Part shown: positions 3,921 to 42,806 of the stretch, one piece after another
Layout of the letters: every line of letters begins with the position of its first letter
Numbering within the stretch: the stretch's first letter is position 1
Assembly: GCA_051530055.1 (NCBI GenBank)
Contig: CM121343.1
Location: 1,086,389 to 1,150,388, forward strand
Direction: 5' to 3'
DNA length: 64,000 nucleotides
From: Neoechinorhynchus agilis
Taxonomy: Eukaryota > Animalia > Acanthocephala
Program-made: the position numbers and the translations under genes
The notes under the pieces: model-generated
What the model saw: the letters and a program-made list of their open reading frames with translations, nothing else
What the model was told of the DNA's origin: nothing
The model's database searches: none

Positions 3921-4319
3921 AAGGGTCTCGTGTTGACACAAACAGGACCTGAAAGCACCGGGTCTGTCTTTGTCTACTCGTTTTAAGAATGAGCTCATTT
4001 CCATCAGCGGGTATCGGAGATGACATGAAATCATCACTTTTGTTTTTATTTGATCTATGTAAAGGCGAACGCTTTTGGATCACTTTATCTAAGCGGTACT
4101 TGTTTGTTTACTTATATGAATACACATTAGCATACCCATGCGTATCTGTTTTTATCGAATACGGCATGCTGCGTATATATTTTTCGCATTTACAAGTAAT
4201 GTTTGATGGTGTTTTGGCGTCGAGAAACGGCGCGATATGAAAGAGGATATGTGAGATTGACTCACCGTACTTTGTGATTTGGAAGCAGCCTCGAATACAG
4301 TCATATCACCGGTTCATTG

Positions 4320-4592
4320 TGCCGGACCCTCATTAGGACCAAATTCTAAAGAACCAAAACAAATGGGCCCCTCATTTGGACCAAATTTTAAATAACGAAA
4401 ACAAATAGGCCTCTCATTAGGACCAAATTTTAAATGACGAAAACAAATGGGCCTCTCATTTGGATCAAATTCTAAAGAATCAAAACAAATAGGCCTCTCA
4501 TTAGGACCAAATTTTAAATGACGAAAACAAATGGGCCCCTCATTTGGACCAAATTCCAAGGAACTAAAACAAATGGGCCCCTCATTAGGACA
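4320..4592 (-). repeat. 39-bp tandem repeat in an open frame (13-aa unit FGPNEGPICFxxL)
   Basis: ORF 4314..4745 repeats GPNE[GR]PICF about 7 times. The copy at about 43340-43695 has more units. Confidence 0.9.
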
Positions 4593-4964
4593 TTTTTTAA
4601 TAGGAAGTTTTATGTATTTGTGTTTGTTCGGGTTGTCCGGTGATTGATGACTTACTAGCTCCTTTAGTTTGTCCGAAGAAATCGGTATTCTTAATGTATT
4701 GGGCGGTCGAACGCCGCTTTCCTCCGTACACTCAAGGCCAACCATGGGATCGAGAGGCTTCTGAATGGCAGGAGGAACAACATCGTTAGCGACACCAGGC
4801 TACGAAAACATGCCGTTGTACTTTTTGTTGAATGCTTTGGGACGCGAATTGACAATTTCGTGTATCATCGATCGAAATCCAAAACCTGTGTAATTTGGGT
4901 CGACGGCGCGACCTTTATTGAACACTGTACCAATCAGACGGAAATTGTGCTTTGAGAATTGAGC

Positions 4965-5039
4965 TCGCATCCACGCAAGACTACCACTGGAAATACTTTG
5001 ATTAAGCAGACTACATGGCTACTTTTTACAAATTAATTT
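4965..5039 (+). repeat. 75-bp direct repeat, left copy (right copy 5846-5920)
   Basis: tcgcatccacgcaagactaccact...ctacatggctactttttacaaattaatt occurs twice with a few differences. Confidence 0.9.
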
Positions 5040-5040
5040 C

Positions 5041-5109
5041 GAGGTGGTCAAGTGGACTAATGCCCGTGATCCCGATTAGGAGTCAAGTGGTTCGAATCCG
5101 TTACCACCA
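5041..5109 (+). ncRNA. tRNA-derived Pol III head (A box and B box), SINE-like or tRNA pseudogene
   Basis: TGGTCAAGTGG (A box) and GGTTCGAATCC (B box), ending in ACCA. No convincing acceptor stem. Inverted copy at about 42823-42891. Confidence 0.6.
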
Positions 5110-5125
5110 ATGACGCACAGCCAAA

Positions 5126-5190
5126 GGGGACGAAATACCGCTGAAGGGAGGAAATTCACTGATGAGTCCCGCCTCCTGGAGGTATCTGAG
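5126..5190 (+). ncRNA. Hammerhead-ribozyme core with non-canonical strand order
   Basis: GGGAC-GAAA-TACC ... TTCA-CTGATGA-GTCCC ... GGTA-TC-TGAG. All three stems are complementary. The copy at 42741-42806 (minus strand) pairs better. Confidence 0.6.
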
Positions 5191-5231
5191 GATCCGGAGG
5201 AATGTACAAACTCTTAACCGTGCATTAGAGA

Positions 5232-5639
5232 CTATGTGGTTATATCACTTCTCTGATGTAATTGGTTTGGCTTTATGCCTAAATAAATAAGCCGGACAAG
5301 AAAGGGATTGACTAAAATTGAATGATCTTTTAATAACACTTCGGATCCTTTCCAAATCAATTCGCATTTGACAGATTGAGCGTTTGGAGAATCGTCAGAG
5401 CGTACGATATGGCGAGTTTTGAAAAAGCTCATACTATATTTCGGAGCGACATACATAAATTCGCGAGGACCGGAAAGTAGTAGATTATACAACTTTTGAT
5501 CGCTCATCCACAATGCTAATGAATTCTTAGTCTTAGGCAGAGCTTCGTTCATATATCCATCCACATTGTTACACTCATAACGGTCAGAGGAACCCAATAT
5601 TGCCCAAATCCGAGGCACGAAGAAATTCGACCATATCAC
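5232..5639 (-). CDS. Orphan 135-aa ORF inside the direct-repeat-flanked cassette
   Basis: Open in two copies (also 42293..42700) and truncated in a third (62312..62668). No recognisable motif. Confidence 0.3.
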   Translation of the reverse strand: MIWSNFFVPRIWAILGSSDRYECNNVDGYMNEALPKTKNSLALWMSDQKLYNLLLSGPREFMYVAPKYSMSFFKTRHIVRSDDSPNAQSVKCELIWKGSEVLLKDHSILVNPFLVRLIYLGIKPNQLHQRSDITT

Positions 5640-6539
5640 ATCGAACGATTAATTCAAGTTAAGTCTCACCCTTTCGAAGCTCAACTTATTGCGGAAACCT
5701 TAATCTGCCCGAACCACTCACGAGTAGAGGACGACACCTCGGACTGAGGCAGAAAAGGAAAATGACCCAATTATCAATTTAGGTCTACAAACATTGGGCA
5801 AATGATATTAATTTAGGCATGAGCCTTGGCGATAGCCGACACTTGTCGCATCCACGCAAGACTACCACTAGAAATACTTTGAGCAAGCAGACTACATGGC
5901 TACTTTTTTACAAATTAATTATTTTCTATTAAAAAATTACGACAAATATTTAAGCGCGCGCCAAAATCTTAGACAGATTAGAATTCTGTCGTTTTTTTGT
6001 ACCGTCAAAATCGCCGTCCGTTTTATATTTTTGTTCGCTTGTTCCTTGCACCGCTCTTTTTTGTTCTCCGATGAATCGAGCGGCTTTGAGGCTGATGGTT
6101 GATTCGATTTGCCATCGCACCGAATACGAACGGAAGCGTCGCAATGCACGTGAGTAATATTTTATTATTAATACGGGCATTATGTTTGTTTATGAGTTAT
6201 TTTCTTTATATTGAGTTGATTCTAATAATCAACCTAAAAAGAAATATTTTGAAATCATTGGAAACGTCGTTTTCCGATTAATGGTCTGCATTGCGGGTGA
6301 ATCTTCCCTCAACAAAAACGACAGCTATTGCGTGAGTAGTGGAACACCGACAGTGTTTCGTGCCCTGGATCAGAGAAGTGAGACTCGATCTCCTTTTCAG
6401 TTTTTGCCACTGCTACCGGGGTCTCGGATGATATCGAAGTCGCCATTAACTGATAACGTTTTTGTTGCCAAAAACCAACTCGGCTACGCGTATCACGCAC
6501 ACCAATGGACACCCACACGCACCACACGCGTACGTCACC

Positions 6540-6797
6540 GATCGATTACTTGCTCAAGAATCATGCACCGATGACCACAGTAGTTGAACATTTCAAGAGA
6601 AACTGTGATATTAGCTCGTTCTCCCTCGGTCTCTTTTATTGCCTTAAACATTGCAACTTCATTGTCATCTTTATCGATGTTTCCAATCGCGTTCTTTAGG
6701 ATCTTAACTGCAAGTTTGCGGCTGAAACCCTTCTGTTAGCATTTGAGGATTTGCCCGAAACTGCCCTCGCCAATTAAGTCTCCCTGGATATAAACTT
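6540..6797 (-). pseudogene. DYRK/HIPK-like (CMGC) kinase N-lobe fragment
   Basis: Translates to VYIQGDLIGEGSFGQILKC*QKGFSRKLAVKILKN..EVAMF..LEMFNYCGHRCMILE, showing the Gly loop, the VAIK-type lysine and the helix-C glutamate, with an in-frame stop. Confidence 0.75.
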
Positions 6798-6799
6798 TA

Positions 6800-7609
6800 T
6801 TATCGTGACCGAGAGCTTACGTTCGCTTGATATTCTCGATCGTAATTTGAACCATGAACGAAGAGAGAAGCTACTTTAGTCGAGAGAGCAGAGTCGGGAG
6901 GGTCATAACGGACGGAACTATCAGCTTCCCTTTCAGACCAGTCAGATCTGGACATTCCCTCCATCTCAATCTCGGACATAAGTGGACGGAGAAGATCAAA
7001 AAACTGACGTGCCGTCAACCTTTCCCTGGCAATTATGTTCATCCAGCTAGTAACATCAATGCTAGCCTTGGAATAGTGTATACCCAATTCTGAGATGATA
7101 TCCTCTTTCTCTTGTCTAATCGAGACTAAATTGCAGCTCGGACATTCGACGTGCCAGCACAGATTATTTAAGGCTGAAGGATTATCATCAGTATCCAGCA
7201 ACCAGTAGTCTGAATAGCTGAAGTCACCATAGCGATAGTAAGGGAGAAGGAAAGAATACAGCTGTCTTACAGTAGCAGAAAGATTCCACACCTTGATATA
7301 ATTTTCGATCTTTGAGATATCCTGAGAAGAGATAGGGCCAGAATAGCCAGGAACAAAATCCCAACGCTTGGCAAGAGTGCTTCGTCGGCTGCTAGTGAAT
7401 ATCCTTACGGGCCTCGGATTATAGTAATGACTTAGTTTACCCATAAGTTGATCCCCAAGATCCGACCTACAACCGTTACTCCAAGAGCTCACAGCTGATC
7501 CTCCGCAGAGACAGCCGCAGGCTCGGAAGTAGCCTTTGGTTCCGACTCCTTTGTAGAAGTCTTGAATTTTGGGCCCGTTGGTGCTTGCTGAGAGTCCCCT
7601 TCGAAACAC
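6800..7609 (-). CDS. Orphan ORF of the putative viral block; likely start at MGKLSH (about 7444); 3' end fused to the host repeat at 6863
   Basis: Long open frame. Its last ~20 codons match the repeat at 41070 onward, so the C-terminus is chimeric. Confidence 0.45.
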   Translation of the reverse strand: MFRRGLSASTNGPKIQDFYKGVGTKGYFRACGCLCGGSAVSSWSNGCRSDLGDQLMGKLSHYYNPRPVRIFTSSRRSTLAKRWDFVPGYSGPISSQDISKIENYIKVWNLSATVRQLYSFLLPYYRYGDFSYSDYWLLDTDDNPSALNNLCWHVECPSCNLVSIRQEKEDIISELGIHYSKASIDVTSWMNIIARERLTARQFFDLLRPLMSEIEMEGMSRSDWSEREADSSVRYDPPDSALSTKVASLFVHGSNYDREYQANVSSRSR

Positions 7610-7866
7610 GACTCAATACCGAACGGATCGGCATACTTCTGAGAACTGGGAACATCAAACGTACCCTTATCAAATCTGGTCTCCCAGCTTGCAGTACTGG
7701 CCAAGGAGAATCGGAGACGGGTGTAGGCATCAAGTTTCACGTGAATGGCAAACAACGGACCAATCGTTACAAAGTCATACTCCCCCTTGCAACTCCTAGG
7801 ATAGAAGGCCCCTCGGAATGTGATATCTGAGTCCGACCATAAAGGGTTCGAGATTGTCAGTCTGAA
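7489..7866 (-). CDS. Orphan open frame without ATG, overlapping neighbouring ORFs
   Basis: The frame is open from about 7866 to the stop at 7489; the ORF track shows its last 88 aa starting at a TTG. Confidence 0.3.
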   Translation of the reverse strand, partial: FRLTISNPLWSDSDITFRGAFYPRSCKGEYDFVTIGPLFAIHVKLDAYTRLRFSLASTASWETRFDKGTFDVPSSQKYADPFGIESCFEGDSQQAPTGPKFKTSTKESEPKATSEPAAVSAEDQL

Positions 7867-8977
7867 CTATAGACCAGACAGAATTATTTAGAAAGAATTT
7901 CATGGTAAGATCATCTTCTGTAGTATGAGACGAGTGCCACCATGACACCCCAAGAGAAGTTCTACCATTATTTTCTGAGTACGCTGTAGCGCCCGTTCCA
8001 ATTGACGTTCCCACGAGTTTCGAGACCATGGCCCAATGGAGTATAGTTCTTTCGCAAATAACAGTAACGTTAGGATCTTCAGCCCATGCGGCAAAAGCGC
8101 GAGTGAGAGGAACCCCCATATAAGCATTTATAATACCTAGGACAGTTCTATCACTCCTCGGAAGTACTTCAGAAGGCATGCCCAACGTCCAAGATGATTG
8201 TGGCACAAGCGTTTTAACCGAAACTTGCATGGTATCGAGGCGCATACTTAGTTTATGACTTGCGACCCGGAGGCGAGGGAGAATATTCGGGGCCGAGTAG
8301 TATTTGAGTTCATCTTCAGGTCTAGTCCTGGTTCGAACGGCAGGAAGGTCAGTCACCCTCAAGAAGCCAAGTTGAATCAGAGGGTAGAAATAAAGGCCCG
8401 GATCATAATTCCAAGCCAATCGAATGCCAGAGTTGTATGGAACGTTCAATCTACCCATAACTTGATGTTCGAGAGAATTGTTAGATAAAGCTAGATATGA
8501 TAAAAGTTCTTCTTGACAAGGAATCTCATCGAGAGGCTCATTCGGGGAGGACCCGTTCAAGATCGATAACCCTAGGCTATCATAAGGGAACGAGCCTAAA
8601 CCATTCGAGTGTGGATAGAAAAAGCGCTGAACTCGTGTTTCTATTTCTTCCAGAGTAACAGTGACAACGATAAAGATTTTCTCAGATTCTTTGGCAAAGG
8701 CGTCCATTAGCGCAAAGAAGTGTTGTTCTGGTCCAGAAGTGTTCATATAGACCTCATTGGTGAGGATTAGATTCCACACTATACCCACTATTCGGAACAG
8801 CTGTTCCGCAGGAGCTGGGAAATACTGTTCCATTAACGCTAGAGTTCGACCATCAAATGCGGAGCTGTGTGCATCAGCCCCTTCGTTCCAAGAAAGATTG
8901 TTGACAGCTATACTCTTGAAGAATTCGACTATAGACATGCGTAGCCACACCACTTCAAATGGCTGACATGTCCACAT
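7796..8977 (-). CDS. Orphan 393-aa protein, putative viral
   Basis: Uninterrupted ATG-initiated ORF starting 17 nt after the stop of the upstream 511-aa ORF. Confidence 0.65.
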   Translation of the reverse strand: MWTCQPFEVVWLRMSIVEFFKSIAVNNLSWNEGADAHSSAFDGRTLALMEQYFPAPAEQLFRIVGIVWNLILTNEVYMNTSGPEQHFFALMDAFAKESEKIFIVVTVTLEEIETRVQRFFYPHSNGLGSFPYDSLGLSILNGSSPNEPLDEIPCQEELLSYLALSNNSLEHQVMGRLNVPYNSGIRLAWNYDPGLYFYPLIQLGFLRVTDLPAVRTRTRPEDELKYYSAPNILPRLRVASHKLSMRLDTMQVSVKTLVPQSSWTLGMPSEVLPRSDRTVLGIINAYMGVPLTRAFAAWAEDPNVTVICERTILHWAMVSKLVGTSIGTGATAYSENNGRTSLGVSWWHSSHTTEDDLTMKFFLNNSVWSIVQTDNLEPFMVGLRYHIPRGLLS

Positions 8978-8994
8978 ACGAGTGATGGTACCGT

Positions 8995-10530
8995 CTAGTT
9001 GGGTATTACCATTAGGCGGCGGGCGGTGACTTCCGGATAGTTGTCGGTGGATAAGATTGCTTTCATACGAGCGAATGTAGCGGGAGAACCGTCACGGTAG
9101 TGGTCGAGAGCTGAAGATCCGCAGAGTGTAAGATAAGCCATTTTCTCATTACGACGACGAAGCATAGGTGCAAGATGACTGACGGTGTTTAGAACGCGAG
9201 TGAAATCCATCCGCGCCGAGGTATCTAGGTCATCAGACAAGATCAGCCTAAATATCCTATCATGGCAAGGGCCACTTCTAATAGTAGCCGGAGGATTCAG
9301 AGGTTCCGCCGAGAGGGTATAGAGTGAATTAGCATCACAATTGGTGCCAGCTCGCAAAACTGTTTCCTGCTCACGCCAAAGATCATTGTATTCTGCACCT
9401 ATAAGTCCGGAAGTAGAGTAAGAAAGTCCGGCTGAGAAGCAGAGAGGTCCGCGGAATTCGGATAGATGGGGTAAAACTCCAACATAGTACTCTAAAGCAT
9501 TCTTTTCTTCTTGAGTTTTACCTTTGTAGAACGAGATATTGTCTTCAGCTATAACCTTAGCAGCATCACTAAGGAAATTGTCATCTTCCATACATGTAAG
9601 ACCTATGGTATAAAGAAACTGGGGCTCCTCAGTCGCTAGTATGACCAACCTGGTGGTCGGGAGAGTACGAAAGAGGGAATAGTTGCCGGCTAGGGCAGTG
9701 GTAACTTTGAAAACATGATCAGCAGATTGAATAGATTCGACTGTCATTTGATAGCCGACCGGAACGTAAGGCCCAGAGACAGGATTACCGTTGATCGAAT
9801 GCATAAGACGATTCCACTCATCAGCGAGTCTCTCGGCGTAGCCATCGCTGCCAGCCAGAACGGAGGAGATGTAAGAACTAACGAAAGAGCTCACACCGTT
9901 TCCAGCTAGTCTAGCAATAGCGTCAGACGAGATCCAACCTGACGAATAAAACTGTCTAAAGTGTCTATTCTTGAGTGAAGAGAGCAATGCTATGCGCCTA
10001 GAGGCGCGCCAATCCAGATTTTCGACCAACTCGCCTTGGCCATTCAAAACATCTAGTTCTTTACAGAACGCAGCACAAAGTCTCTGATTACGCGAGTTTA
10101 ACCCGTACGCTAGAGCGCGTAACATGGGTTGATTGTTGCGATGAGAATAACATAAGCCCATTAGCCTTTTCTTGGAAGTACCAATCTTATTAAGCAGAAA
10201 GTGCGCCCGCACCCTGACATCATTACGGATCTTGTGGCCAATTTCTTCGGACTTCTCATTTATGGCCGTGGCCCCAACGAACGTGCTATCGTACTTGAAG
10301 TTTCGTATGGCGGCCTCCATATCTCGAGTGAATGAACCGGTTTTGTCAGTGGGAAAGAAGGCGTTGTAGTCTCTGCGCCTATCTCTTTTATCCCTCTTAT
10401 CAACTTGGACATATTCTGCCTGACCCAAAGTCGCTTTGGCTCTACTCACATAAGCCAAGAACGCAGTACCCAGATCAACGGGGCAATTCGGTAAAGATTC
10501 CAGATCTAAATCATCGCGATACGTAGTCAT
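8995..10530 (-). CDS. Orphan 511-aa protein, putative viral nucleoprotein-like first gene
   Basis: Uninterrupted ORF with ATG about 110 nt from the 28S junction. It has a basic N-terminal region and no transposon or host motif. The nucleoprotein label is inferred from size and position only. Confidence 0.6.
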   Translation of the reverse strand: MTTYRDDLDLESLPNCPVDLGTAFLAYVSRAKATLGQAEYVQVDKRDKRDRRRDYNAFFPTDKTGSFTRDMEAAIRNFKYDSTFVGATAINEKSEEIGHKIRNDVRVRAHFLLNKIGTSKKRLMGLCYSHRNNQPMLRALAYGLNSRNQRLCAAFCKELDVLNGQGELVENLDWRASRRIALLSSLKNRHFRQFYSSGWISSDAIARLAGNGVSSFVSSYISSVLAGSDGYAERLADEWNRLMHSINGNPVSGPYVPVGYQMTVESIQSADHVFKVTTALAGNYSLFRTLPTTRLVILATEEPQFLYTIGLTCMEDDNFLSDAAKVIAEDNISFYKGKTQEEKNALEYYVGVLPHLSEFRGPLCFSAGLSYSTSGLIGAEYNDLWREQETVLRAGTNCDANSLYTLSAEPLNPPATIRSGPCHDRIFRLILSDDLDTSARMDFTRVLNTVSHLAPMLRRRNEKMAYLTLCGSSALDHYRDGSPATFARMKAILSTDNYPEVTARRLMVIPN

Positions 10531-10641
10531 AATAGGAAGATCGTCCAGGCTCTCGGAGCGCTACAGAGAAGCATGTGTAAAAAAGGTTAATGTTGTTGAC
10601 CTAATTGATAGCTCTCAGAGAACGACAGCGAAGCATGTGGT

Positions 10642-11806
10642 ATTGACAGCAGGACGGTGGCCGCAGAAGTAGGAATCCGCTAAGAAGTGTGTAAAAACTC
10701 ACCTGCCGAATCGACTGGCCCTGAAAATGGATGGCGCTGGAGACATATATCCATGCTTGACCGTCAATGCCAGACACAAATGTACAAATGGCTTGACGTG
10801 TAGAAGGGCGTATGCGGTGGTGTTGAAACTTGCACCGTGAGGTGGAGTGGAGCCGCCGCTAGTGCAGATCTTGGTGGTAGTAGCAAGTATTCAAATGAGA
10901 GCATTGAAGACTGAAGTGGAGAAAGGTTCCATGTGAACAACATTTGGACATGGATCAGCCGATCCTAAGAAAACGTGCAAATTCGTGATTAAGCGTGTTG
11001 CATTGCGCAATACAATCGAAAGGGAATCGTGTTAATATTCCCGAGCCAGAATGCGGTTTATGCTTGATCTATTCAGATGTTCTTCTTGGGCAGATGATGT
11101 TCAGCATAAGTGGTGACACGAGCAATCCCAGAGAATAACTATACGAAGTCTGGGGAAGAGTTTTCTCTTCTTTGTTAAGAACTTTATCCCTGGAATTAGA
11201 TCGTCTGTTGATAGGGTACACGTTCCATAATGCAGCGCAATTCCTGCGATGTACCGAGCGCTTCGTATTGTCCTTGAAAATCTGGGTGCGAGAATATTCA
11301 GACCGTACCTGTTCGTACTGATTTCCGCAGCAGGTCTCCAAGGTGAGTAGCCTCTAGTCGACAGGGAAACGTAGGCAAGGGAAGTCGGCAAATTAGATCC
11401 GTAACTTCGGAAAAAGGATTCGCTCTACAAGGTGAGCTGGCCGGGCTGTCGGGAGAAGCGGTATGTTGTCGACTCTTGGATCTGTCTCAGTTATTTGCTC
11501 TTGCGAAAGAGTCGATTTCGAGGACGGAACATGGTGCTGCGTACTGTGGGCAGCGATAGCTATGCTCCGCGTTTGTTCGACGTATCCAGACGGGTACGCT
11601 CGCTTCTTGCGCGGGGATCCGATCAGCGTTAAACAGCTGGCCTAGAACTGGTATGGACAAGGGGAATCCAACTGTTTAATTAAAACAAAGCATTGCGATA
11701 GCTGTAATCGGTGTTGACGCAATGTGATTTCTGTCCAGTGCTCTGAATGTTAAAGTGAAGAAATTAATTTAAGCGCGGGTAAACGGTGGACGTAACCATG
11801 ACTTCC
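10642..11806 (+). rRNA. 28S: 28S rRNA internal fragment (diverged, 5'-truncated)
   Basis: Conserved LSU blocks: gacagcaggacggtggcc, ccctgaaaatggatggcgct, agtgcagatcttggtggtagtagcaa, gggaagtcggcaaattagatccgtaacttcgg, gcgcgggtaaacgg. Confidence 0.95.
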
Positions 11807-14800
11807 TCGCAAAAATCTACCCTGAAAATCATCGACGAATATTCGGAGTCATTAGTGGCCCCGCGTCCATCGGTTGCTAAGCGCTCATCTTTAGATGACG
11901 CTCATCGTTCGGACCAACAGCAACAGCAACATCATCAAATGAACAAACAACCGAAAACCGAGTGCGGCCAAAGACCGAGCAGCAATAATCCAACAGGCAA
12001 AACAATAAGACTTCATTACCCGATCGACCAAATCAACATGCTTCTTTGCCCGGTATGGAGTCTTGGATGTGTTGGACAGTCCAAGTTCAAGCTGCTACTC
12101 GCACACCTACATGGGGCCCATGAATACGCGGAGGTGATTTGGGTATGTCCCATCTGTGACAGTTTCGGGCATCGCGAATCTCGGAGTGTTGGACTACATT
12201 TCCGACGATGCAAAGCAATCCAAATGGAAAAATTCAGAAACATGGTTTTGAGTTCTGCAAATCCTCATGCCAATGTCAATCCGGCACCATCCGCAATCAT
12301 TTTATACAAATCAGGAGAAGACGATCCAGCTGCTAGTCCGGCATGCGAACTTTCGCTCGTTGGAAAAGGACGTTATAACTCGCTTGTAGGCCATTTGGAG
12401 AACGTCCACAAATCAAATTCGATCACCTTTCAATGCCCAGCGTACGCTGTTCAATACGATACACTTCCAGCTATTCGTTCTCACGTTACACACTGCCAGT
12501 CCGTTTCCAAAGATAGGGACTTAAAATCTTCGTGCAAACCGGAGGAGTCAGAAAATTGCCTCAATTACAATCGCTACACCTCAGAAGCGTTCAACATAAT
12601 CTCTCGGAAACGACTGTCAGGGCTACCAGATCAAGGAGATAACCTATTACAAGACTCGCCTAAGAAGACACGCCGAACGGTTGACGATTCGATTGATTGT
12701 GTTCTGCAGGAAGTAAAGGTTTTTACCGAAAGCAGCGATGAAACAGATGTTATATCTTCTCACCTTTCTCCAAATACTGTGCACAATGACGCTCGGCGCA
12801 ATGGCGATGCATTAAACCCAGGAATTTACACAGTCAGACATGCTTCGACTCATATTCCAACCTCAACAATGATACCTACCTCAACTCAAACATCTACCTC
12901 AAGAATTTGTAAATCGAGTGATCGTGCAAACCTGCATCAGGTGCCTACACCCCATATTGGGGCATGTGCGTTTTCGGCACAAGAGGGACATGAATTTATC
13001 CTCAATTGTCTTCAACGACCGGATATTCATCCACGCTACCGCCTCTTTCTAAGCAATGAATCTCAAGTGCTACGTAATCAAACCGGTCCAATTAATCAGG
13101 AATTTATAGATTCAATGAGTGAGCGACATCAACTTAACTTAAAATGCGGGCGACAAGGGTCTCTCGAATGCCCAGCAATGTCCCGTGCGCGCAGTCTCGG
13201 CCTAAAAATTGTAAAGTTGAAGAAAAATTCAACCATGGCACTGGCGACCGCCGCCTTTCACGTTCACAGAAACTCTACACAGTGGAGGAGAGTAAAGGAT
13301 CGACTCTTGGATTCTGTTTTACGTGAACGTCAATATTTTGAGCATGTTGTTAAAATGCTCCCGGACGCAAATCTCGCGCTAAATGACATACTGGATTCCC
13401 TCAAAAACGACAACGAACTGTCAGTTTACTTCATCATTTCGGCCGCAGCGACTGCCTATCAATGTGACTTTGTAATTTATACTCCAAACGATGATGTCCC
13501 AATTCGAATCCGATCTCGAACGGTCTCAAATTCATCATTTAACGTATGGATCGACGATTCTGAAACCTATCCTTGCGAGCGTTCTCGAGGTCTGAACTCG
13601 AAGCAGTCAAATGATGTTGTCAAAAGGCGATACCGCGCTCTTTATTTCAATAATACAAGTCGACTTGCCAACTTGATATTTAAGTCGGACGAAAACCGCC
13701 AGCCTACTATCCCACAATCGGACTGTGTAAAACACTTACGCTCACTATTCGAGGATTCCAAAGTTACAACTCGTATCTCCCATGTCAATTCTGGTCCGCG
13801 TGATCTACTTTCGTTGCAGGAATTATGGCCAGCTGTAACCGTAGACGAATTACAAGCTGCGATCCGCGGCATAAAGTCAAGCAGTTCCGTCGGTCCTGAT
13901 AAGATAACACTTCGTGAAATTCGTGCGTTCGACAAGCACCTTGTGGGGGCTTACAATCCTGGTCAACTCCGTCATACAAGTTGGCTATCCACCAAAGTCC
14001 TGGCTAGAAAACAAGACCATTTTGCTTCCGAAAAATGGGATGAAAAATGAATCTTTGAATTCGATGTCCGGCTGGAGACCGATCACAATATCATCTATTC
14101 TACTTCGTGTTGTGCATCGGGTTATGCTGGAAAGATTAAGGAAGTGCTGCAGTTTGCACGATAGCCAGACGGCGTTTGACAGCACAGCGTGCAATTCAAA
14201 TCTCCTCATTTTGAGGGATTTGATGAAAAAGAAGAGGTTAGATAGGAAGCAAATTGCATTGGCAGTTTTTGACATCAAATCTGCCTTCGACTCCGTAAGC
14301 CATGAAACAATACACAATGCACTAGTTGCGCACAACTGCCCAATATACATGCGGCGGTATCTGATGGAGGTGTTTAGTACTTCATACACCCGGCTCCACC
14401 TCCCTAGTTCAAGACCATCGGACCCAATTAAGTTTCATCGATGCGTGAAACAGGGAGACCCACTTTCGCCATTCGTTTTTGCACTTTGCATTGACGATGT
14501 CCTGCGACAGGTTGACGAACTAGGGTTGGGGTGCTCAACCAGAAGCGGTCGCTTAAGCCAGCTAGTGTATGCAGATGATATTCTCTTAATTGCCGAAAGT
14601 ATGAGGGATCTGCAACAAATGATTGACATCATGAACGAGGGACTTTCTAAGAAAGGACTGAATTTATCGCCTAACAAATGCAGGACTTACCACCAACGCT
14701 TTGTTTATAACAAGCTGGTCGTCGAGGGAGAACCAACCGCTTACATTGGAGAAGCGAAACTTACTACAATAATAGACGGAGACCCGATTAAATATCTGGG

Positions 14801-16184
14801 CGGTACATCATGGAAGCCCACCAATATTGAAGAGATGTCCGCGGAACTCTCAAGACTTTTTGATGAAACAAAGGCGGCTGGCCTAAGTCCGACACAAGCA
14901 GCTCACATGATAAATGATTATGGACTCCCGAGCCTCGTATCAAGATTACAAGCGGCACATGACATTTCGTCAACCTCCTTAAACAAGATTGAACAACTTT
15001 GGAGGACGAAACTAAAGAAGCTCTTATTTTTGCCCCATTTTTTAAATGATGGAGTATTATTCTTACCACTATGCAAGGGTGGACTTGGCTTCTCGTCCAT
15101 TAAACACTCTGTTATGAGTTCAAGAATAAAGACTTATCTTGCAGCAAAATCGCACTATTATGACATGGATGAAGATCAGCGTATCTATAAAAATCTCGAG
15201 GAATATCTCGTCAGCATCGCTGGATCATCGGCCGACTTCACAGTCGAAAACATGAGGAATGCGTATACAAAATACCTGGAAAAAAAGGTGGGAAGAAGCG
15301 TCTACCCAATCTCTTGGAATAAACGCGTTTACAGGAGGGCATTTTGATCATACGGCGTTAAGCTTTCGATACCGTCAGGACAACAATCACAATTATACAA
15401 TGCGGGTAAAAATGCGGTATCAACTGCTAGAGGTAGCATCAAATCTTTCAAGAATGGACCATGCCCGAAGTAAGTAGTGCAGGCATTGTACGGCGCCAGC
15501 AGACACAACTACATGTCCTAAATCTCTGCCCGAAAAGCACAACCAAAATGGTAGAGCGTCATGATGCGGTTCAAGAACGCTTTACATGGGCTCTACAGAA
15601 GCGATGGGGCTCTCGGTGGGAGATTCACACCGAGAACCGTATACAAGATAAGCAAGGTCAACTCTACAAACCAGATCTCATTCTCATCGACCGACATCAG
15701 AAGAAAGCAAACATAATCGATTTTGCAGTTTATTACGAAACGACAAACGAGCGAGGAGAGAATATCATGGCCGAGAAGGAAAACAAGTACAGTGTAATAG
15801 TCGAGAACGTAGCTGCCAAATACAATTTAAGAAAACATGATGTTAAAACTATTGGGTTGGCAGTTGGGGCAAGAGGAACCTACTCAGCAGCACTATTAAG
15901 AAGATTACGAGAGTTTAATTTATCCAAAAATACCGCCCTGAACATGGCAAAAACAGCAGCGGAGCAGTACATTAAAGTCTACAACAATTTTATGGGACAC
16001 ACCTTCTTGCTTCGATACCCGAAAACAATTTACAATTGAATTATTGAATTATTAAATCAATTCAAGAGCAACACAAAAATAGATAAGCAAACAAGCAAAT
16101 AACAAAATCAAGCCAAAGATGACAAGCAGATTAGAAGATTTAATGTATAAACATTTATATGATAAAATCTAATAAATGCGAATT
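11807..16184 (+). mobile_element. R2-like site-specific non-LTR retrotransposon (ZFs, RT, CCHC, RLE) with frameshifts
   Basis: RT motifs WRPITISS, AVFDIKSAFDSV, KQGDPLSP and YADD, and RLE motif KPDLILID..IIDF..KENKY. The 3' end abuts TAGCCAAATGCCTCGTCATC, the canonical R2 site. Frame breaks at about 13950, 15285 and 15480-15500. Confidence 0.93.
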
Positions 16185-16275
16185 TAGCCAAATGCCTCGT
16201 CATCTAATTAGAGACGTTTTGAATCGAAAAAACTTACAAACGCGCGGGTAAACGGTGGACGTAACAATGACTTTC
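16185..16275 (+). rRNA. 28S: Short downstream 28S flank followed by a second degenerate copy of the upstream target sequence
   Basis: tagccaaatgcctcgtcatctaattagagacg, then cgcgcgggtaaacggtggacgtaacaatgact. Confidence 0.85.
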
Positions 16276-16629
16276 TTTATTTCCGACAAAGACAAAGATT
16301 CCCCAGGACCCAAAGAAACCATTGAAACAAAAGAAAGCTCATCAGTTCACCCCAAAGTCGAGAGTTAACCCCACATCGACCGGAAGCGAAGCGCATTTTT
16401 CAGATGGCGCTTTTCCCGATGATATGGAAGCCGAAAGGCGTTTGAGTGCGACAATAGCAACAACATCATCACATATTTCAACTTCCGATCGCCCAAACTT
16501 GTCCAATGAACTCACTTCGCCGGTGCAAAGCGGTCAAGGTGGATTTATACGGAAACTTACTAGCAAACCGCAAGAAGGATGTCGTACTTGAGCAAACAAT
16601 TTCTATCGTTCAGATCGTGTATTGCACGT

Positions 16630-19759: not shown

Positions 19760-22480
19760 CTTTTCCATTTTCAGTGATCCAGAAAGGTAGTGAGGATGAT
19801 AGAGGTACTCGTCATTCGAACGTAAATATTCGTTGATGAGGGGTCGCATTCGTACTCGTGCACAGCAAGGATTGTATTCTGGAAACGGCTTCGGGAAGGA
19901 CATCGGACTATCGATTTGACGGTAGATTCTTGTCGGCGAGCATGAGTTAAATTGTCCTCCAGATTGTCCCGTTAGTTCTCTCACACTGCCCGTTTCCCTG
20001 TGGATGAAATGCTGTTGTATTGTTGATACAGATTCTTAAGCTGTTTAGCCAAGGACGTACGCTTAGAGATACGAATGAAGCTCCTTTGTCCGAGTGAACA
20101 TAAGCAGGGCAGCCGAAAATGGCGAATATTTGCCGTAAACATAATTTAACAGTTTCGGCAGAACAGTCTCTGGTAGCGAAAGCAATCGGGAACCGTTAGA
20201 ATTCGTCCACAGCAACGAAAAGATAAGCCATTCCATTTGTAGTTGAGGGCAAAGGCCCCTTAAAATCGACGGATAAACGTTCGAAAGGTTTTTTATTTAT
20301 TTATTTATTTATTTATTAACGCTGAATCTATTTGGTTACTTTTCTTTACATTCACCACCTCCCACCAAATTCCAGCTTTTGTCCTTCCTCGACCGTCGCC
20401 ATCACGCTGGCAGCATTGCCCCGTTGTACTGCCAGCGAGATATTTTGTCGAAGAAATAAGCCTGCTCTTGAGTCTCCGGTTGCCTCTCTCAATTTCTTCG
20501 GTTGCCTTAATAAGGCGAAGATTGTTAGATTTAAAGAATCTTGGTTTTATACGGCAACACGTTTGACATTCGGAACATATTTGTCGTATTTCAACGATCG
20601 TATACGGAAGGTTGTTTTCCTTGATAAAGTGTGAGAATCTGGTGACTCCGGAGTGGCCAAGATCTGAGTGTATTTGAAGATGTCTATTTCGAATAGTCAT
20701 GGGAGCGCAAGCATCACGAGACATGACGTCAGCTGAGCAATTCTCCTTACCTGGACGATACTTTATCGTATATGAGAATCCCGATAGTTCCAGGAGCCAT
20801 CGTAGTATCCTTTTGTTTCTGATTTTCTTCGAGTGTTTCTGGTTCATCAAGAACGACACCGTTTGCTGGTCGGTAATAATGACGAACTTTTTTATGGCCA
20901 AGAAACAGCGCCAAAATTTAACTGCTTCATATAGTGCATAGGCTTCTATTCAACGATGTGGTAATTCTTTTCTGATTTGTTGAGAATTCTCGAGAAAAAA
21001 GCAACGGGCTTGCAGTCTTGCAAAAGAGTGGCACCAATCGCGTTCGTCGATGCATCGGTGTCCAGCGTGAATTCTTTGTCCTCGTCGATATTGATCAGTA
21101 CAGACGATCTTGCGGCTTCCTTCAATCGAACGATCGCCTTGATGGCATCGTCCTCAAGAGGGAAGTGTATAACGTGCGTTAAAGGAGCGATTTCGGTGGA
21201 ATATTGCGGTATCCAGCGACTATAATAGGCAAACAAGCCTGAAAGTCGCTTGAGTGCTTCTTTGTTATTAGGGATAGGCAGATCCATCAGTGGTTTTAAG
21301 CGATTCGGGTCGGGTCTCAACTGACCATGCCCGATCTTATATCCGAGTACAGATATCTTTTCCATTCCAAATCTGCTTTTTTTGTTGTTAAGTTTAAGAC
21401 CGGTCGTTGCTGCTACTTGTTTGAATCGTTCAAGATTAATCTCATGTTCCATTTTCGTTTTCCGCAAACAATTATGTCATCCAGATATGAATAGGTCTCC
21501 TTCAAGTCATTGGAATCAATGAGGTAATTCACGAACTTCTGAAATGCAGCCACACCGTTGGTGACTCCCATCGAAATTCTTGTGAACCTATACAACTGAC
21601 CGCAAGCCCCAAAAGCGGTATAGCTTCGTTCATCAGGTGAAATAGGCACCTGGTAATACGCCTCTTGAAGATCAATTTGACTGAAATACCCGTTAGCTGC
21701 AATTCTGTTGACCGTTTGATCGATTTTTGGAAGCGGGTACGCATCGAGGAATGTGAATCGGTTTATTGTTTGGGAGAAATCAACCACGAGTCTCCTCTTT
21801 CCACAGCCTTTTCTGGCAACGAGTACTTGAGCACGCCATGGCAAATTCGCGCTTTCTATTATCTCTTGTTTAAGCATTCGTTGGATTTCAGAGCGAATGA
21901 ATTGTTCGTCGGATTGACAATGGTCTCTGGATTTTGTAGCGATTGGCATACATTTACTGCTTAGATTGGTGAAGAGCGATGGAACATATCTAGGACCATT
22001 GATGGCTGATGCTCGTATTTCCGGAGGTTTTCCGTTTCCTTTCATGAAAATTCGGAATTCCTTGTGTAGTGTCAGAAATATGAGTCCGAGGATAACGTTA
22101 GTGCAAAGATCATGCAGCAAAAAAGTTCTACTTTTTCGTAGACTTCCTTTCCATGCAGAAGATCGACTTCGCATTTGCCGGTTATTTGATTTGCTTTGTT
22201 TCCTGTTGCCAAAGTGACAGTGAGCCGGGTAACTTCGATTCTAGCGTTGATGTTTCTAGCGACCGATTCGTCGATAAAGTTCAAAGAGCTTCCGGTATCC
22301 AATAGCGCAGAAAGCTCTTTTCCTTTGACTTTAATAAGTTGGACGAGAGGCTGGTAAACGTACAGAGGAAAGGCTGGTTTTCTTGTCGAGGTCCACCAAT
22401 CGATATGCACGCGTGGTGAATGGAGTACAACTAGAAAACAGAGCGCGTTGGTTTTTGTGTTGAACTACAATAACATGTTT
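19760..22480 (-). mobile_element. Decayed Ty3/Gypsy pol (PR-RT-RH-IN); LTRs not identified
   Basis: ALLDTGSS; RRLVVDFS..YLDD; LDTDAS..PVAFFSR; integrase H..GH..C..C; and SVDFKGPLP..HSDKG..FHPQGNGQCER at about 19960-20290. Confidence 0.9.
20293..20500 (-). mobile_element. Short retroposed insert with (TAAA)n tail inside the Gypsy integrase
   Basis: It separates IKAT from PFERLSVDF and ends in a taaa microsatellite plus an A-run. Confidence 0.65.
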
Positions 22481-32380: not shown

Positions 32381-32428
32381 TTATATATTTAACTTCGGGG
32401 TTCAAAAAACGTACAAAAGCGCTGTTTC

Positions 32429-33727
32429 GTGATGCAAAATTGCGCTTCGAATATCAGCAATCAGGTAAACCCTATTTCCGACATGTCTAGATTAAGGTTT
32501 GTTCCTACTATCCTCCTCCCCCCGAGTGATTGTGAAGTTTTGAATGATTGTGCACAAGTTTCCATAGGGGATCAGATGGAACATTCTATCGACGCATCAA
32601 GGTTTAAGCGTCCTGTTAGGAAAGAGGATTTCGTTATCAAAATTCCCAAAGAAGCCATGGGCACTAACTCCCCCTCCTATTTCTCGCGTTATTTCTTCGA
32701 GAAGTATTTACTGCCGAATGGTCGTGAGAAACATATGAATTTTTTGATAAAGAGGTTCTCTGTGACCAAATTCCACATCCTTTTTATTTTTTTCGATGCG
32801 GCCGGTAAAGACCTCTTTTCTAAGATGCTAGGGGAGTTAAGCATCCAATCTGTTGACCTATCTCGTAGAGTCACCTTTCTAATGAGGAATCCTCCTCAAG
32901 ACTTGGATACTACTGATTTTCGCAAAATTGAGGATGAGTTAGGTATAAAACTGGTCAAATATCTGTTTAGACCCAACGCTAGTTCAGCCTACGCCATCCT
33001 ATGTTCAGCTACTATCAATGTCGCCGAGAGTCTAGCTAACTCCGGCAGGGTTTTTTTCTCATACTGGGTCACTTTTGACCGATACAGGGACTCTATCTAT
33101 GATTATAATTTGACGATATGTCAGAGGTGTTCGAGATGGGGGCACCACGAATCTGACTGTGTCTTCCCCTCCAGATGCATCTTTTGTGCAGGTCCTCATC
33201 ACAAATCATCTTGCTCCAATTCTGATGCTGCTACCTGTGCAAACTGTGGCAAGAATCATCCGGCCTTTGCACGTTCTTGCAAATTCGCGCAAAAATATTT
33301 TGACGATTCCATACCATCGAAGCAGCGAGTATTCCATAATTCTAGTTATAGAGAATTCTATCCACAACATAATCCTTTCTCTTCGGACGGTTTTTCCTCT
33401 AAGGAGTCGAAGACTCAACCTTCCCCTGATGGTCACAAGCCTAAACTTCCCCCCAAACCTCCGGAAAAATCCTTTCTTGATAGTTTAAAATCTTCCATTA
33501 ATACTTCTCAACTTTATCCCGATAAAGAAATTTCATTGCTTAAGTACTTCCTTACTTTGATCCTTCACAAACTGGAAAATCTTTCTACACCAGACTCTAC
33601 CTCCGACAATTTTTCTAGATTATTTAACTTTAATAACTGGATCGATTGTGAAAATTATAAAAGAGATATTTCCCCATCTTTGCGTAACTTGGAATCTATA
33701 GATTCCAAACGTCCTAAATTCATTTAA
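32429..33727 (+). CDS. LINE ORF1 with three CCHC zinc knuckles
   Basis: CQRCSRWGHHESDC, CIFCAGPHHKSSC and CANCGKNHPAFARSC. Confidence 0.9.
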   Translation: MMQNCASNISNQVNPISDMSRLRFVPTILLPPSDCEVLNDCAQVSIGDQMEHSIDASRFKRPVRKEDFVIKIPKEAMGTNSPSYFSRYFFEKYLLPNGREKHMNFLIKRFSVTKFHILFIFFDAAGKDLFSKMLGELSIQSVDLSRRVTFLMRNPPQDLDTTDFRKIEDELGIKLVKYLFRPNASSAYAILCSATINVAESLANSGRVFFSYWVTFDRYRDSIYDYNLTICQRCSRWGHHESDCVFPSRCIFCAGPHHKSSCSNSDAATCANCGKNHPAFARSCKFAQKYFDDSIPSKQRVFHNSSYREFYPQHNPFSSDGFSSKESKTQPSPDGHKPKLPPKPPEKSFLDSLKSSINTSQLYPDKEISLLKYFLTLILHKLENLSTPDSTSDNFSRLFNFNNWIDCENYKRDISPSLRNLESIDSKRPKFI

Positions 33728-36372
33728 TGAATTGTTCCAATTATAAGGAATGTCCTTTCTCTTTCATCACATATAATGCCTCTAGGGCTTCTAGTCTTCC
33801 TAATTTTCTTACTCCTTGTGTAGTTGATAACTATGTTAACATGCTGTGTTTTCAAGAAACCGGCTTTTCTAAAATGCTTCTCTTCGATAATTATGATTCT
33901 CATGTTCTTCTCCCTCGCTCCACATCAACCAATCAGCACATTGGATTTTCTGGAGGACTTCAAACATTTATTCTTAAATCTCACTCTTCTAAAATTTTAT
34001 TTCAAACTAAAAATATTTCTTTTGCAATGCAAATTATTTCTTTTAATAATCCCTTATATGGAACCTCATCCCTTTTCTCTCCTACTCTTATCCTTTGCAA
34101 CTTGTATATTCAACCCAGACACGTGGGTATATTTACTAAATCTTTTATGCATATCCTCCGTTACTGGAATCCTGACTTTATCGTAGGCGACTTCAATAGT
34201 AATTTTTTAAATGCTTTTAGGCCCTTTTTTAAGTTTCGCAATTTTTTGCTCCCCAAATTTCCTTCTTTTCATAATGTTAAATCTAATAGACATACCTTCT
34301 TGGGTGGTGCAATTATTAAAAAGTCAATTCCTATTTTATTTTATCCTGCTTCCCAACTTCAGTCACAGAGATTGTTAGGGCATGACTTTATCCTTTTTAA
34401 ATCTAATGGCATCGATCTTAAGGACACTTTCGTTTTTAATCCTAAAAGCTTTTCAAAATTTAATAATGATCTCCTTTCTTTTATGAACTCTTCCACTTCA
34501 TCCTCCTTATCTGACTTTAACAATGCCATTTTATCCTCTGTACATAAAAATTTAATTACTAAGTCTGTGATCAAGCGACCTCCTGTTTGTCATGAAGCCA
34601 GCATATTTTACAAAAATGCTGTTATAGCTGACTTGTATGGTAACGCTCCCCTTAAAAACTTATTTATGAAAAAATTTTACACAGCTAAGTTTTATCATCA
34701 AGTTTCGTTGGACAAAAAGAAGCTGATCTCTCTTAAGTCCTTTGGTAAGGACTTTTGGTCCTGTATTTTGAAAAGAAGACCGGTCTGTTGGAAGGCAAAA
34801 GCATCTAACTGGATAGGGTCTATATCTTATCCTGCAGTAATTGAGTCTATTTTGATGGCACATACTCTTAGTGCATGTTCTTCTCCTCCACTTCCCATCT
34901 TTAATAAAAAGTCCTTTTCGTGGAATTTTGAAGTTGAAGTTTTTCTGAAGGCCTGTAAATCTAACCCCTCTAAAGCGTATAATATAAATGGCACTTCACC
35001 CATAATTTTTAGTTCTATTTCTGATAAGGTAAAATCTATCTTTTTTAGTAGATTTCGTTTATCGAAAATTGATTTTAATGATCTACTTAACATAAATATT
35101 GTTAAGAAAATTTTTATTCCCCAAACGAAAGGACGTATATTTAACGCATCCCACATCAGAGTAATTTCCATACAGAACCCAATCGTCTCTTGCTTAGAAA
35201 GAGCGGTGAACGGGAAACTGTATGACTTTTTAGTATGTAGAAAGCTAATCCCCGACTTTTTCCATGGCTTCATTAGAGGTAAAGGTGTCACATCGCTTTT
35301 ATCCTCTCTTAATTCTATGAATGAAGCTATTAATGTACAAAAACTTCTCATTCAGCTGGATATTAATAAGGCTTTTGATGCCTTGGATCGTGGCTTTCTT
35401 TATGAGGCTTTAGTTAATCTTAAAGTTCCTCTTAATCTTATCTACAAAACCAACTATCTTATGGAATCCAAGTCCTTTTACTATGAGGTGGACCCTTCTC
35501 ACACTAAATTTTTCTCTAGATATGGTGTTCCTCAAGGATCTCCACTCTCGCCCACCTTATTTTCAATTGCCCTTATATATATTTTCAAAAATCTAAAGAA
35601 ATCATCTTCCATATTTCCTTTAGTTTATGCGGATGATATATTCTTATTTTGTAAAGCTAGAACATCTTCTATTCTAACGAATAATATAGCCAATTTTATG
35701 CTATCTTTGTCGTCGGAACTTAGGAAAGCCAATTTAGTTACAAACAATAACAAAACTTTCTTTATTCCACTGACTAAAACTTTGGCTTCGAGGAAGCTTC
35801 TAATTAATGAATTATCTTCTAATTTCAATTTCCCTAATATCAATTTTAGATCGCATTCCAAGATTTTAGGTGTTGATTTCCCCTGTAAAAATCACAGAAT
35901 TTTTATAAACTCTTCCTTTAAAAGTCTTCTGACAAAAACAGATATTTTTATCAAAAGAGCCAAAAGGTTATCAATTTCCCCACCTTTTATTTCTAAAGTG
36001 TTAAAAATATTTCTAGGGGGTTCAATATGCTTTTTCGCACGAGGCCGGCCCCCAGAAAACAGACTTTCATTTTATCTTACTATGCTGAATAAGCTTAGCA
36101 GTATTCTTATTAAAAATAATATTGATACGGAACCCCTTTTTTCCTTTTTAACAAGAATTTTTTTGTCTAAAATTTGGTTTTATTCTTATTGTTATTCTAG
36201 CTGTAAATATTTTAATTACAACTCCTCAATTCTTAGAATCTTTTTCAATAAACCATCCAGGTTTTTACCCATTAATCAAACTAATATACTTAACAGGAAT
36301 GAGGTAAGTGATTTTCTCATGTTATTCTCTTTTTTACAGGATCAGGACAAGAAAAGGATTATTATTATTTAA
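33727..36372 (+). CDS. LINE ORF2 (APE endonuclease and RT), intact
   Basis: CFQET and VGDFNS (APE); RVISIQNP, LDINKAFD, PQGSPLSP and YADD (RT). It ends in an (ATT)n tail, and the ORF1/ORF2 junction is TAATG. Confidence 0.92.
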   Translation: MNCSNYKECPFSFITYNASRASSLPNFLTPCVVDNYVNMLCFQETGFSKMLLFDNYDSHVLLPRSTSTNQHIGFSGGLQTFILKSHSSKILFQTKNISFAMQIISFNNPLYGTSSLFSPTLILCNLYIQPRHVGIFTKSFMHILRYWNPDFIVGDFNSNFLNAFRPFFKFRNFLLPKFPSFHNVKSNRHTFLGGAIIKKSIPILFYPASQLQSQRLLGHDFILFKSNGIDLKDTFVFNPKSFSKFNNDLLSFMNSSTSSSLSDFNNAILSSVHKNLITKSVIKRPPVCHEASIFYKNAVIADLYGNAPLKNLFMKKFYTAKFYHQVSLDKKKLISLKSFGKDFWSCILKRRPVCWKAKASNWIGSISYPAVIESILMAHTLSACSSPPLPIFNKKSFSWNFEVEVFLKACKSNPSKAYNINGTSPIIFSSISDKVKSIFFSRFRLSKIDFNDLLNINIVKKIFIPQTKGRIFNASHIRVISIQNPIVSCLERAVNGKLYDFLVCRKLIPDFFHGFIRGKGVTSLLSSLNSMNEAINVQKLLIQLDINKAFDALDRGFLYEALVNLKVPLNLIYKTNYLMESKSFYYEVDPSHTKFFSRYGVPQGSPLSPTLFSIALIYIFKNLKKSSSIFPLVYADDIFLFCKARTSSILTNNIANFMLSLSSELRKANLVTNNNKTFFIPLTKTLASRKLLINELSSNFNFPNINFRSHSKILGVDFPCKNHRIFINSSFKSLLTKTDIFIKRAKRLSISPPFISKVLKIFLGGSICFFARGRPPENRLSFYLTMLNKLSSILIKNNIDTEPLFSFLTRIFLSKIWFYSYCYSSCKYFNYNSSILRIFFNKPSRFLPINQTNILNRNEVSDFLMLFSFLQDQDKKRIIII

Positions 36373-39769: not shown

Positions 39770-40195
39770 AGGAAAATCCCTCAATGCTGGCATAGGTTCT
39801 GCAAGAGCTGACCCACCAACTGGTGTGGTTTATAGCATACCGTGTGAAGATTGTGCCAGATCCTAAATAGGACAAACTAACAGTCTCTGCCGCAGAATCT
39901 ATGAACATAGGTATGCACTGAGGAAAAATGATGCGAACTCAGCGATAGTCAATCATGTTGATGCAACGGGACACTCAATCAACTTTGACAATGTCAATGT
40001 TTTATTCCGTAGCGACAATCGATATGTTCGTGTTATCGCTGAGTCGATTTTTATTAAACAATATGATACAATGGAAGGCAATAAGGCGGACTATGTACGC
40101 AAAATGAGTATTGCAATCACTTAAAAAACTTTACTACCCCTTTTAGACATCCTGGAGAAGACTCACAAGTGAGTCGAAATATTGACCCTTTTAAT
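39770..40195 (+). mobile_element. Penelope-like 3' fragment (GIY-YIG) with degenerate hammerhead
   Basis: GVVYSIPCEDC..*IGQT..RRIYEH..NSAIVNH; CTGGAGA-A-GACTCA..TGAGTC-GAAA at about 40152-40185. Duplicated at about 59790-60215. Confidence 0.8.
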
Positions 40196-41137: not shown

Positions 41138-41398
41138 GTTTATATCCAGGGAGACTTAATTGGCGAGGGCAGTTTCGGGCAAATCCTCAAATGCTAACAG
41201 AAGGGTTTCAGCCGCAAACTTGCAGTTAAGATCCTAAAGAACGCGATTGGAAACATCGATAAAGATGACAATGAAGTTGCAATGTTTAAGGCAATAAAAG
41301 AGACCGAGGGAGAACGAGCTAATATCACAGTTTCTCTTGAAATGTTCAACTACTGTGGTCATCGGTGCATGATTCTTGAGCAAGTAATCGATCGGTGA
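41138..41398 (+). pseudogene. DYRK/HIPK-like kinase N-lobe fragment (copy; third at 61157-61417)
   Basis: LIGEGSFGQILKC*..KLAVKILKN. Confidence 0.75.
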
Positions 41399-42740: not shown

Positions 42741-42806
42741 CCTCAGATACCTCCAGGAGGCGGGACTCATCAGTGAGTTTCCTCCCTTCAGCGGTATTTC
42801 GTCCCG
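42741..42806 (-). ncRNA. Non-canonical-order hammerhead core, second copy
   Basis: CGGGAC-GAAA-TACC..CTCA-CTGATGA-GTCCCG..GGTA-TC-TGAG with fully Watson-Crick stems. Confidence 0.62.

Follow-up and report, generated by a model that had tools for sequence, protein, structure and literature searches.

An endogenous fragment of a toti-like double-stranded RNA virus near a 28S rRNA piece and an R2 element in Neoechinorhynchus agilis

In a 64,000-nt stretch of contig CM121343.1 of the acanthocephalan Neoechinorhynchus agilis (GCA_051530055.1, positions 1,086,389 to 1,150,388; hereafter the window, in whose numbering all positions are given), a block of minus-strand open reading frames (ORFs) at 6864-10548 (Table 1) is endogenous sequence of a toti-like (Ghabrivirales-like) double-stranded RNA (dsRNA) virus of an undescribed lineage. 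A sequence-only reading of the window had proposed that an RNA virus of an undescribed lineage lies there beside a 28S rRNA fragment and an R2-type retrotransposon, and polymerase homology and read support bear this out. The same reading took the virus to be negative-sense and to have been captured end-to-end by the R2 reverse transcriptase (RT). We instead consider it probable that an internal, frameshifted piece of a toti-like virus was copied by a host RT and end-joined into a repeat-rich region, with R2 as a bystander.

The fourth ORF of the block was 64% identical to residues 1654-1859 of the N. agilis gene model P0019 (ACOME3_010716) and 63% identical to P0023. Past the point at which the window's copy is cut, P0019 matched RdRP_1 (E 1.9e-7) and RdRP_4 (E 2.8e-5), and motifs A, B and C were present in the polymerase of the sister copies. 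[quoted passage not shown] P0019 shared 27-31% identity over 720-920 aa with these three and with the protein on the 7.5-kb contig. Among 28 proteins compared, the fourth ORF was 32% identical over 152 aa at the N-terminus (E 1e-10) to P0027, a cluster-mate of the SsTV3 polymerase, and weakly matched the SsTV1 polymerase and P0022. In a midpoint-rooted polymerase tree of eight rows, built without classified reference viruses and with an older polymerase fragment of the window dropped as too short, the fourth ORF grouped with the N. agilis polymerases at 100/100 amid long outer branches, and the path to the cestode viruses exceeded 3.5 changes per column. Because of the long branches to SsTV1, SsTV3 and Triaenono virus 1, the block would represent a lineage separate from the cestode viruses. 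A scan of IMG/VR with the SsTV1 polymerase gave no relative, and a JGI metagenome scan gave one locus among 75 pattern matches, on a distant toti-like contig (L001) whose ORF1 was unlike that of the block.

The minus-strand ORFs comprised 511 aa (10530-8995), 393 aa (8977-7796), 84/125 aa and 214 aa (7444-6800), and ran antisense to the 5'-truncated 28S fragment and the R2-type element, as the sequence-only reading had described. Its statement that they carry no transposon motifs also agreed with the Pfam search, in which none of the four had a significant match. They were not four orphan genes, however. The ORFs overlapped one another by 70-120 nt in differing frames, suggesting broken genes, and in tblastn searches of the window P0019, P0003, P0020 and P0011 were collinear with the block over 10548-6860 at 65-84% identity. 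P0019 aligned in four successive segments (aa 504-1012 with 10548-9022, aa 1013-1410 with 9022-7829, aa 1433-1538 with 7830-7513 and aa 1654-1859 with 7477-6860) at approximately 65-75% identity, and P0020 and P0011 reached 83-84%. The 511-aa ORF was also matched by P0020 (aa 215-721) and P0011 (aa 188-696), the 393-aa ORF by P0003 (aa 445-842), and the last part of ORF1 by aa 865-975 of P0003, which terminates at the same place. Five models (P0002, P0003, P0004, P0011 and P0020) crossed the break at 9022 in a single frame. Because the first three ORFs are collinear with single proteins and stop where P0003 ends, they would together represent one gene, ORF1, and the fourth ORF the start of the polymerase gene, ORF2. 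The two followed each other on the same strand in the two-ORF order, with the ORF1 stop at 7491-7489 and the ORF2 ATG at 7444 in another frame. The 393-aa ORF, considered as a carrier of polymerase motifs, was rejected in that role, as it belongs to ORF1 and the polymerase lies downstream. The motif CCCAAAA at 7573, considered as a -1 slippery site, is in frame, but its residues are not kept in P0019.

Both ends of the block are cut within ORFs. Seven gene models extended 187-789 aa upstream of the motif that opens the block and shared an upstream ORF1 part of about 580-630 aa, and the polymerase ORF measured about 925 aa in P0019 versus about 205 in the block. At least approximately 630 aa of ORF1 and about 720 aa of the polymerase were thus missing, and the catalytic motifs of the polymerase, lying beyond the cut, were absent from the block. 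Judged from these homologues, the full viral genome would be about 7.8 kb long, near the sizes of SsTV1 (8,181 nt) and SsTV3 (7,954 nt), and the block would hold less than half of it, contrary to the claim of an end-to-end capture. As neither the whole ORF1 product nor a polymerase can be encoded, the block is a fossil. The first ATG does lie about 110 nt from the 28S junction (111 nt from 10641), but it is an internal methionine rather than a gene start.

These results bear on the proposal that capture of a negative-sense virus began at the 3' leader and proceeded into N-, P- and M-like genes. Only the orientation and spacing of the ORFs speak for it, and we regard it as virtually untenable, given that the ORFs derive from two genes, of which the second is a toti-like polymerase ORF, and that the first ATG is internal.

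From its position in the genome, ORF1 likely encodes the capsid. In our searches it showed no detectable match to the ORF1 of SsTV1, SsTV3 or Triaenono virus 1, and Pfam, PDB, Atlas and BFVD gave no match that could assign it a totivirus-type capsid fold. A PDB sequence search with the 431-aa frame gave 0 matches, and the ORF1 profile gave three chance matches; ESM Atlas returned nothing usable for the 431-aa frame and one lead of 0.75 for P0003. A Foldseek run was uninformative, the P0003 model used in it being of low confidence (pLDDT 34).

Four of nine listed sequencing runs (X1, X2, X4 and X8) were mapped on 5000-10840, with 95% likeness required for depth. X8 is a whole-genome shotgun run from a different study from X1, and X2 and X4 are tentatively taken to be RNA, although none of the listed runs is recorded as such. 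X8 depth over 6950-10459 was even (13-27, mean approximately 20), compared with 57-84 over the left-flank repeat, which has three copies in the window. Relative to that repeat, and without a separate single-copy control, the block behaved as about one copy. An X1 contig covering 6839-10315 had 0 differences from the block, and the reads varied at a few sites. No gap was listed at either frameshift in any of the four runs, so the frameshifts are not assembly errors. The left boundary lay exactly at 6863/6864, where identity with the other copies of the repeat stops, and viral homology reached 6860, giving an overlap of about 4 nt. This junction was spanned by an X2 contig (6823-8002) with 41 nt outside the block, and was also crossed by X1 and X4 contigs with 25 nt outside. 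The left junction is thus no assembly chimera, and viral sequence is joined to host sequence in host DNA.

On the right side, viral homology ended at 10548, where X8 depth was 20, and an X1 contig continued to 10577, 29 nt past the junction of virus and repeat, which is below the 31-nt bar. One base was missing at this junction in 11 of 20 X8 reads and in the X1 contig. The 28S sequence starts at 10641, overlapping the repeat by 2 nt, and 807 reads had a loose end before that position. The sequence-only reading had asked for reads across both junctions; they were found at 6863, whereas the join of repeat and 28S at 10641 was not seen bridged in the read tables of the four runs. The physical link of the block to 28S and R2 therefore rests on the assembly.

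An assembly chimera or contaminating sequence seems very unlikely as the source of the block. The join of repeat and 28S lies between two high-copy sequences, where a mis-join is possible, but an error there could concern only the link to 28S and R2 and not the viral insertion. DNA reads of another study covered the block evenly, the X1, X2 and X4 contigs crossed the left junction with the same frame breaks and no gaps, and contaminating DNA could not come from an RNA virus.

The depth of X2 and X4 contigs over the block was 10-12 near 6900-8100 and fell to 0 near 10070. These contigs carried the locus's own breaks and were absent at 5975-6364, where the DNA is multi-copy; in them 28S exceeded the tandem repeat about 15-fold, which was not the case in X8. 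This pattern hints at low-level transcription of the block, although contigs give neither strand nor level.

The block does not adjoin 28S directly, as had been stated, since 94 nt of tandem repeat lie between them. X8 depth was about 15,000 over this repeat, approximately five times that of 28S (about 3,100), versus about 20 over the block. Thousands of loose ends occurred at 10580 and 10642, with joints going back 61-64 nt. Positions 10563-10577 recur at 10625-10639, and the subunits have diverged; the repeat may be a satellite or else a subrepeat of an rDNA spacer. The 28S fragment beyond it differed from most reads at several sites. R2, whose pieces contain zinc fingers, RT and a restriction-like endonuclease as judged by eye, had normal 28S junctions at both ends. 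Its 3' end lies at the 28S target site, followed at 16185-16216 by what we take to be the downstream 28S target motif, and 11773-11807 matches 16242-16276 at 94%. The ATG of the R2 ORF (11798) lies inside 28S-derived target sequence, and approximately 350 nt without assignment after the second copy of the upstream target (16185-16620) may form the 5' end of a further target-specific element.

On the left, the flanking repeat is cut at 6863, and in its two inverted copies (41070-43822 and 61089-62625) the sequence runs on beyond the cut point. That continuation was found only at these two copies and not to the right of R2, where neither a target-site duplication nor an empty-site continuation was detected. 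Rfam found no rRNA in 4900-6900. The window as a whole is a patchwork of broken retroelements with many DNA-level duplications and truncations.

Considering these results, we propose the following scenario for the origin of the block. Toti-like viruses have no DNA stage, so a host RT would be needed; the RT of a host retroelement likely reverse-transcribed viral RNA in the worm germ line. End-joining of DNA through overlaps of 2-4 nt then likely linked the viral sequence to its neighbours in this repeat-rich region, R2 being likely a bystander and not the inserting agent. Speculatively, the block may be transcribed at a low level, and its transcript would then supply raw material for small-RNA defence.

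Several points weigh against this scenario. An ectopic 1.17-kb piece of 28S, together with a full-length R2, would not ordinarily be expected just 94 nt away from viral sequence, and serial RT jumps could also produce a series of short-overlap joins. In P0014 (ACOME3_000011), viral ORF1 is joined at aa 836-901 to an R2 endonuclease-like piece on the same strand, 42% identical to the translation of 15758-15997. The missing 28S on the left is not decisive, since the flank that was first there may have been lost, and the other copies are known from gene models, that is, from coding exons and not from the surrounding DNA. ORF1 had no match to any named viral capsid in sequence and profile searches, and AlphaFold models of P0003 and of the 431-aa frame both had a pLDDT of 34. 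Lastly, the stop-codon test described below assumes a simple 2:1 transition bias and is weakened if the copy is under host selection.

The chief alternative is that R2 RT, primed at the 28S target, copied R2 together with 1.17 kb of an uncleaved co-transcript, then jumped to tandem-repeat RNA or DNA and then to 3.7 kb of virus, the viral template being an internal 3' end of a toti-like minus strand or an antisense transcript of an earlier insertion. We judge such a capture of a dsRNA virus by serial jumps, in a genome with repeated recent germ-line infections and copies still transcribed, to be unlikely. The order and adjacency of the pieces fit, as do the overlaps of about 2 nt at both inner joins, the 28S piece outside an rDNA unit, the R2 3' end at the 28S target and the coupling of virus and R2 at another locus in P0014. 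Yet three rare steps would be needed, the jump point lies mid-ORF and not at a viral terminus, and the template would be a minus strand. In toti-like viruses that strand is kept within the capsid. Beyond the virus there is no 28S, the left flank being a dispersed repeat, and among 20 other gene models, known from their coding exons only, one contained an R2 piece and one a gag-like piece. R2 jumps to snU12 and tRNAs have been published in vivo (PMC3414825). In the cases detailed in the accessible text of that paper, the captured sequence directly abuts the R2 5' end in sense orientation and has upstream 28S on its far side, whereas 28S and repeat intervene here. Similarly, R2 RNAs are described as normally retaining no more than 36 nt of upstream 28S (PMC3774820), versus 1.17 kb in the window.

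Copying by a host RT and end-joining, which we prefer, can also be set against a secondary origin, in which the block arose by duplication or rearrangement of an older insertion located elsewhere in the genome and its junctions are uninformative on the first capture. Near-identical pairs of models exist (P0011/P0020; P0003/P0018/P0019), and the window contains recent duplications (4,044 bp at 99.9%). Nevertheless, the depth was flat at about 20 at 95% likeness, a third to a quarter of that of the three-copy repeat, no close twin was seen, and the nearest other model was 83-85% identical. We consider this origin highly improbable.

The block belongs to a family of copies. Homologue searches gave almost exclusively N. 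agilis gene models annotated as 'hypothetical protein'; 21 named ones, spread over at least nine scaffolds, matched ORF1 or ORF2. P0001, 95-99% identical to the window, is probably a spliced model of this locus, and identities to the window outside P0001 ranged from 27% to 91%. P0011 and P0020 were 100% identical over 187 aa, and P0003, P0018 and P0019 fell in one 90% cluster; such near-identical models may be haplotypes or duplicates. The aligned part of the block, 1,216 codons, contained 0 stops, whereas neutral decay accounting for its 16.5% divergence from the nearest copy would be expected to leave 5.2 (P 0.006), and a simple model set a 95% upper bound of about 0.022 substitutions per site since insertion. 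The copies have thus diverged mostly as viruses. The lack of stops favours separate and fairly recent integrations, so the copies are likely different virus strains integrated at different times, that of the block fairly recently.

Further models and contigs of the family showed the following. P0019, on a 19.6-kb contig, has an apparently uninterrupted toti-like polymerase (aa 1654-2578) and a duplicated ORF1 stretch in the gene model. In P0012 (ACOME3_009941), aa 421-499 after the ORF1 part form a differing, weakly RdRP_4-like stretch (E 0.065), which suggests that the cluster includes a second lineage of dsRNA virus, and P0004 and P0017 share one further unexplained segment. The sole ORF1 match outside the N. 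agilis models was P0008, on a Logan contig of 2,124 nt (30% over 138 aa), which may be a related virus.

Endogenous viral elements (EVEs) of toti-like viruses are a known kind, and the present family would be an unrecognised multi-copy member of it in a host group for which we found no report. Toti-like EVEs are common in arthropods, with 5,686 reported in 593 species (PMC10636211), and, as described there, they are multi-copy, frameshifted capsid protein or RdRp fragments that are often transcribed. The N. agilis copies resemble them in this, but the host is an acanthocephalan (Syndermata) and the block is known from sequence alone. In SsTV1 and SsTV3, both dsRNA toti-like viruses, the genome has two ORFs, the second of them for the RdRp (PMC7305300). 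The block shares with them and with Triaenono virus 1 the two-ORF layout with the polymerase second, a similar genome size and hosts that are fish parasites; these cestode viruses are exogenous, whereas the block is a broken chromosomal fragment. Ghabrivirales of flatworms form proposed new families (bioRxiv 2021.12.15.472606). Within the Acanthocephala, Mononegavirales-like EVEs have been reported from an assembly of Pomphorhynchus laevis (PMC12548735); as described, they are negative-sense, rhabdovirus-like RdRps on unplaced contigs, whereas the block is toti-like dsRNA virus sequence with a read-supported host junction. The in vivo R2 jumps to snU12 and tRNA likewise place foreign sequence upstream of R2, but according to the accessible text they involve 18-170 nt of small stable RNA directly at the R2 5' end inside the 28S gene (PMC3414825), whereas here a repeat spacer and 1.17 kb of 28S separate R2 from 3.7 kb of antisense viral sequence, which has no 28S on its outer side. 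A literature search, with most subscription journals outside its scope, found no paper on toti-like viruses in Acanthocephala, and it found no report of R2 or rDNA as a route of endogenous viral integration. The accessible text of the N. agilis genome paper (PMC12690905) names viruses only in its reference list.

The results thus show that approximately 20 N. agilis models annotated as 'hypothetical protein' are viral. That the closest named viruses have fish tapeworms as hosts is relevant to relations among the viruses of parasitic worms. The copies could serve as probes for a live virus and offer a way to ask about EVE-derived small RNAs in syndermatan parasites. If R2 were the agent, for which the evidence is thin, a new route of viral endogenisation would be at hand.

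Table 1. Positions of the viral block and of adjoining features in the window
Feature	Position	Strand	Remarks
Endogenous toti-like viral element	6864..10548	-	3,685 nt; high end cut in ORF1, low end cut in polymerase ORF
ORF1, first retained part (likely capsid polyprotein); the 511-aa ORF	9022..10548	-	Ends at frameshift near 9022
ORF1, second retained part; the 393-aa ORF	7829..9022	-	Frame change near 7830, with about 22 codons missing
ORF1, last part	7489..7830	-	Likely natural stop at 7491-7489
Polymerase ORF (ORF2), N-terminal ~205 codons; the 214-aa ORF	6864..7477	-	ATG at 7444
High-copy tandem repeat, ~1.5 subunits of ~62 nt	10549..10642	.	Between virus and 28S
5'-truncated 28S rRNA fragment, ~1.17 kb	10641..11807	+	Rfam RF02543; ends at R2 target region
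R2-type non-LTR (long terminal repeat) retrotransposon, near full-length, broken, three ORF pieces	11798..16184	+	RVT_1, E 6e-35
32 nt of downstream 28S, 25 nt of filler and second copy of 35 nt upstream of the site	16185..16276	+	Sequence comparison
Dispersed composite repeat, left flank	4194..6863	.	Cut at 6863; self-BLAST 96-99%
Older toti-like polymerase fragment with stop codons, inside left-flank repeat	5361..5866	-	41-53% to P0019 aa 1896-2079

The older polymerase fragment inside the left-flank repeat had copies at 42066-42571 (+) and 62085-62590 (+), and in the window it was also matched by the polymerases of SsTV1, SsTV3 and Triaenono virus 1 (E 1e-7 to 1e-10). It is nearly collinear after the block, beginning at aa 1896 of P0019 where the block ends at aa 1859, though it lies 1 kb away and is more diverged. 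A short element at 5039-5326 had an X8 depth of about 1,850, approximately 90 times that of the block, and looked SINE-like by eye; the tRNA origin that its appearance suggested was called by neither ARAGORN nor Rfam. Elsewhere in the window, a broken LTR-element pol lies at 20305-22240, a LINE with an 884-aa RT ORF at 32393-36372, and, at 53492-57914, a Ty3/gypsy-type element whose direct terminal repeats measure 119 nt (97%). The 4,044-bp direct duplication consists of 38563-42606 and 58582-62625, 20,019 bp apart, and is either a recent duplication or an uncollapsed haplotype.

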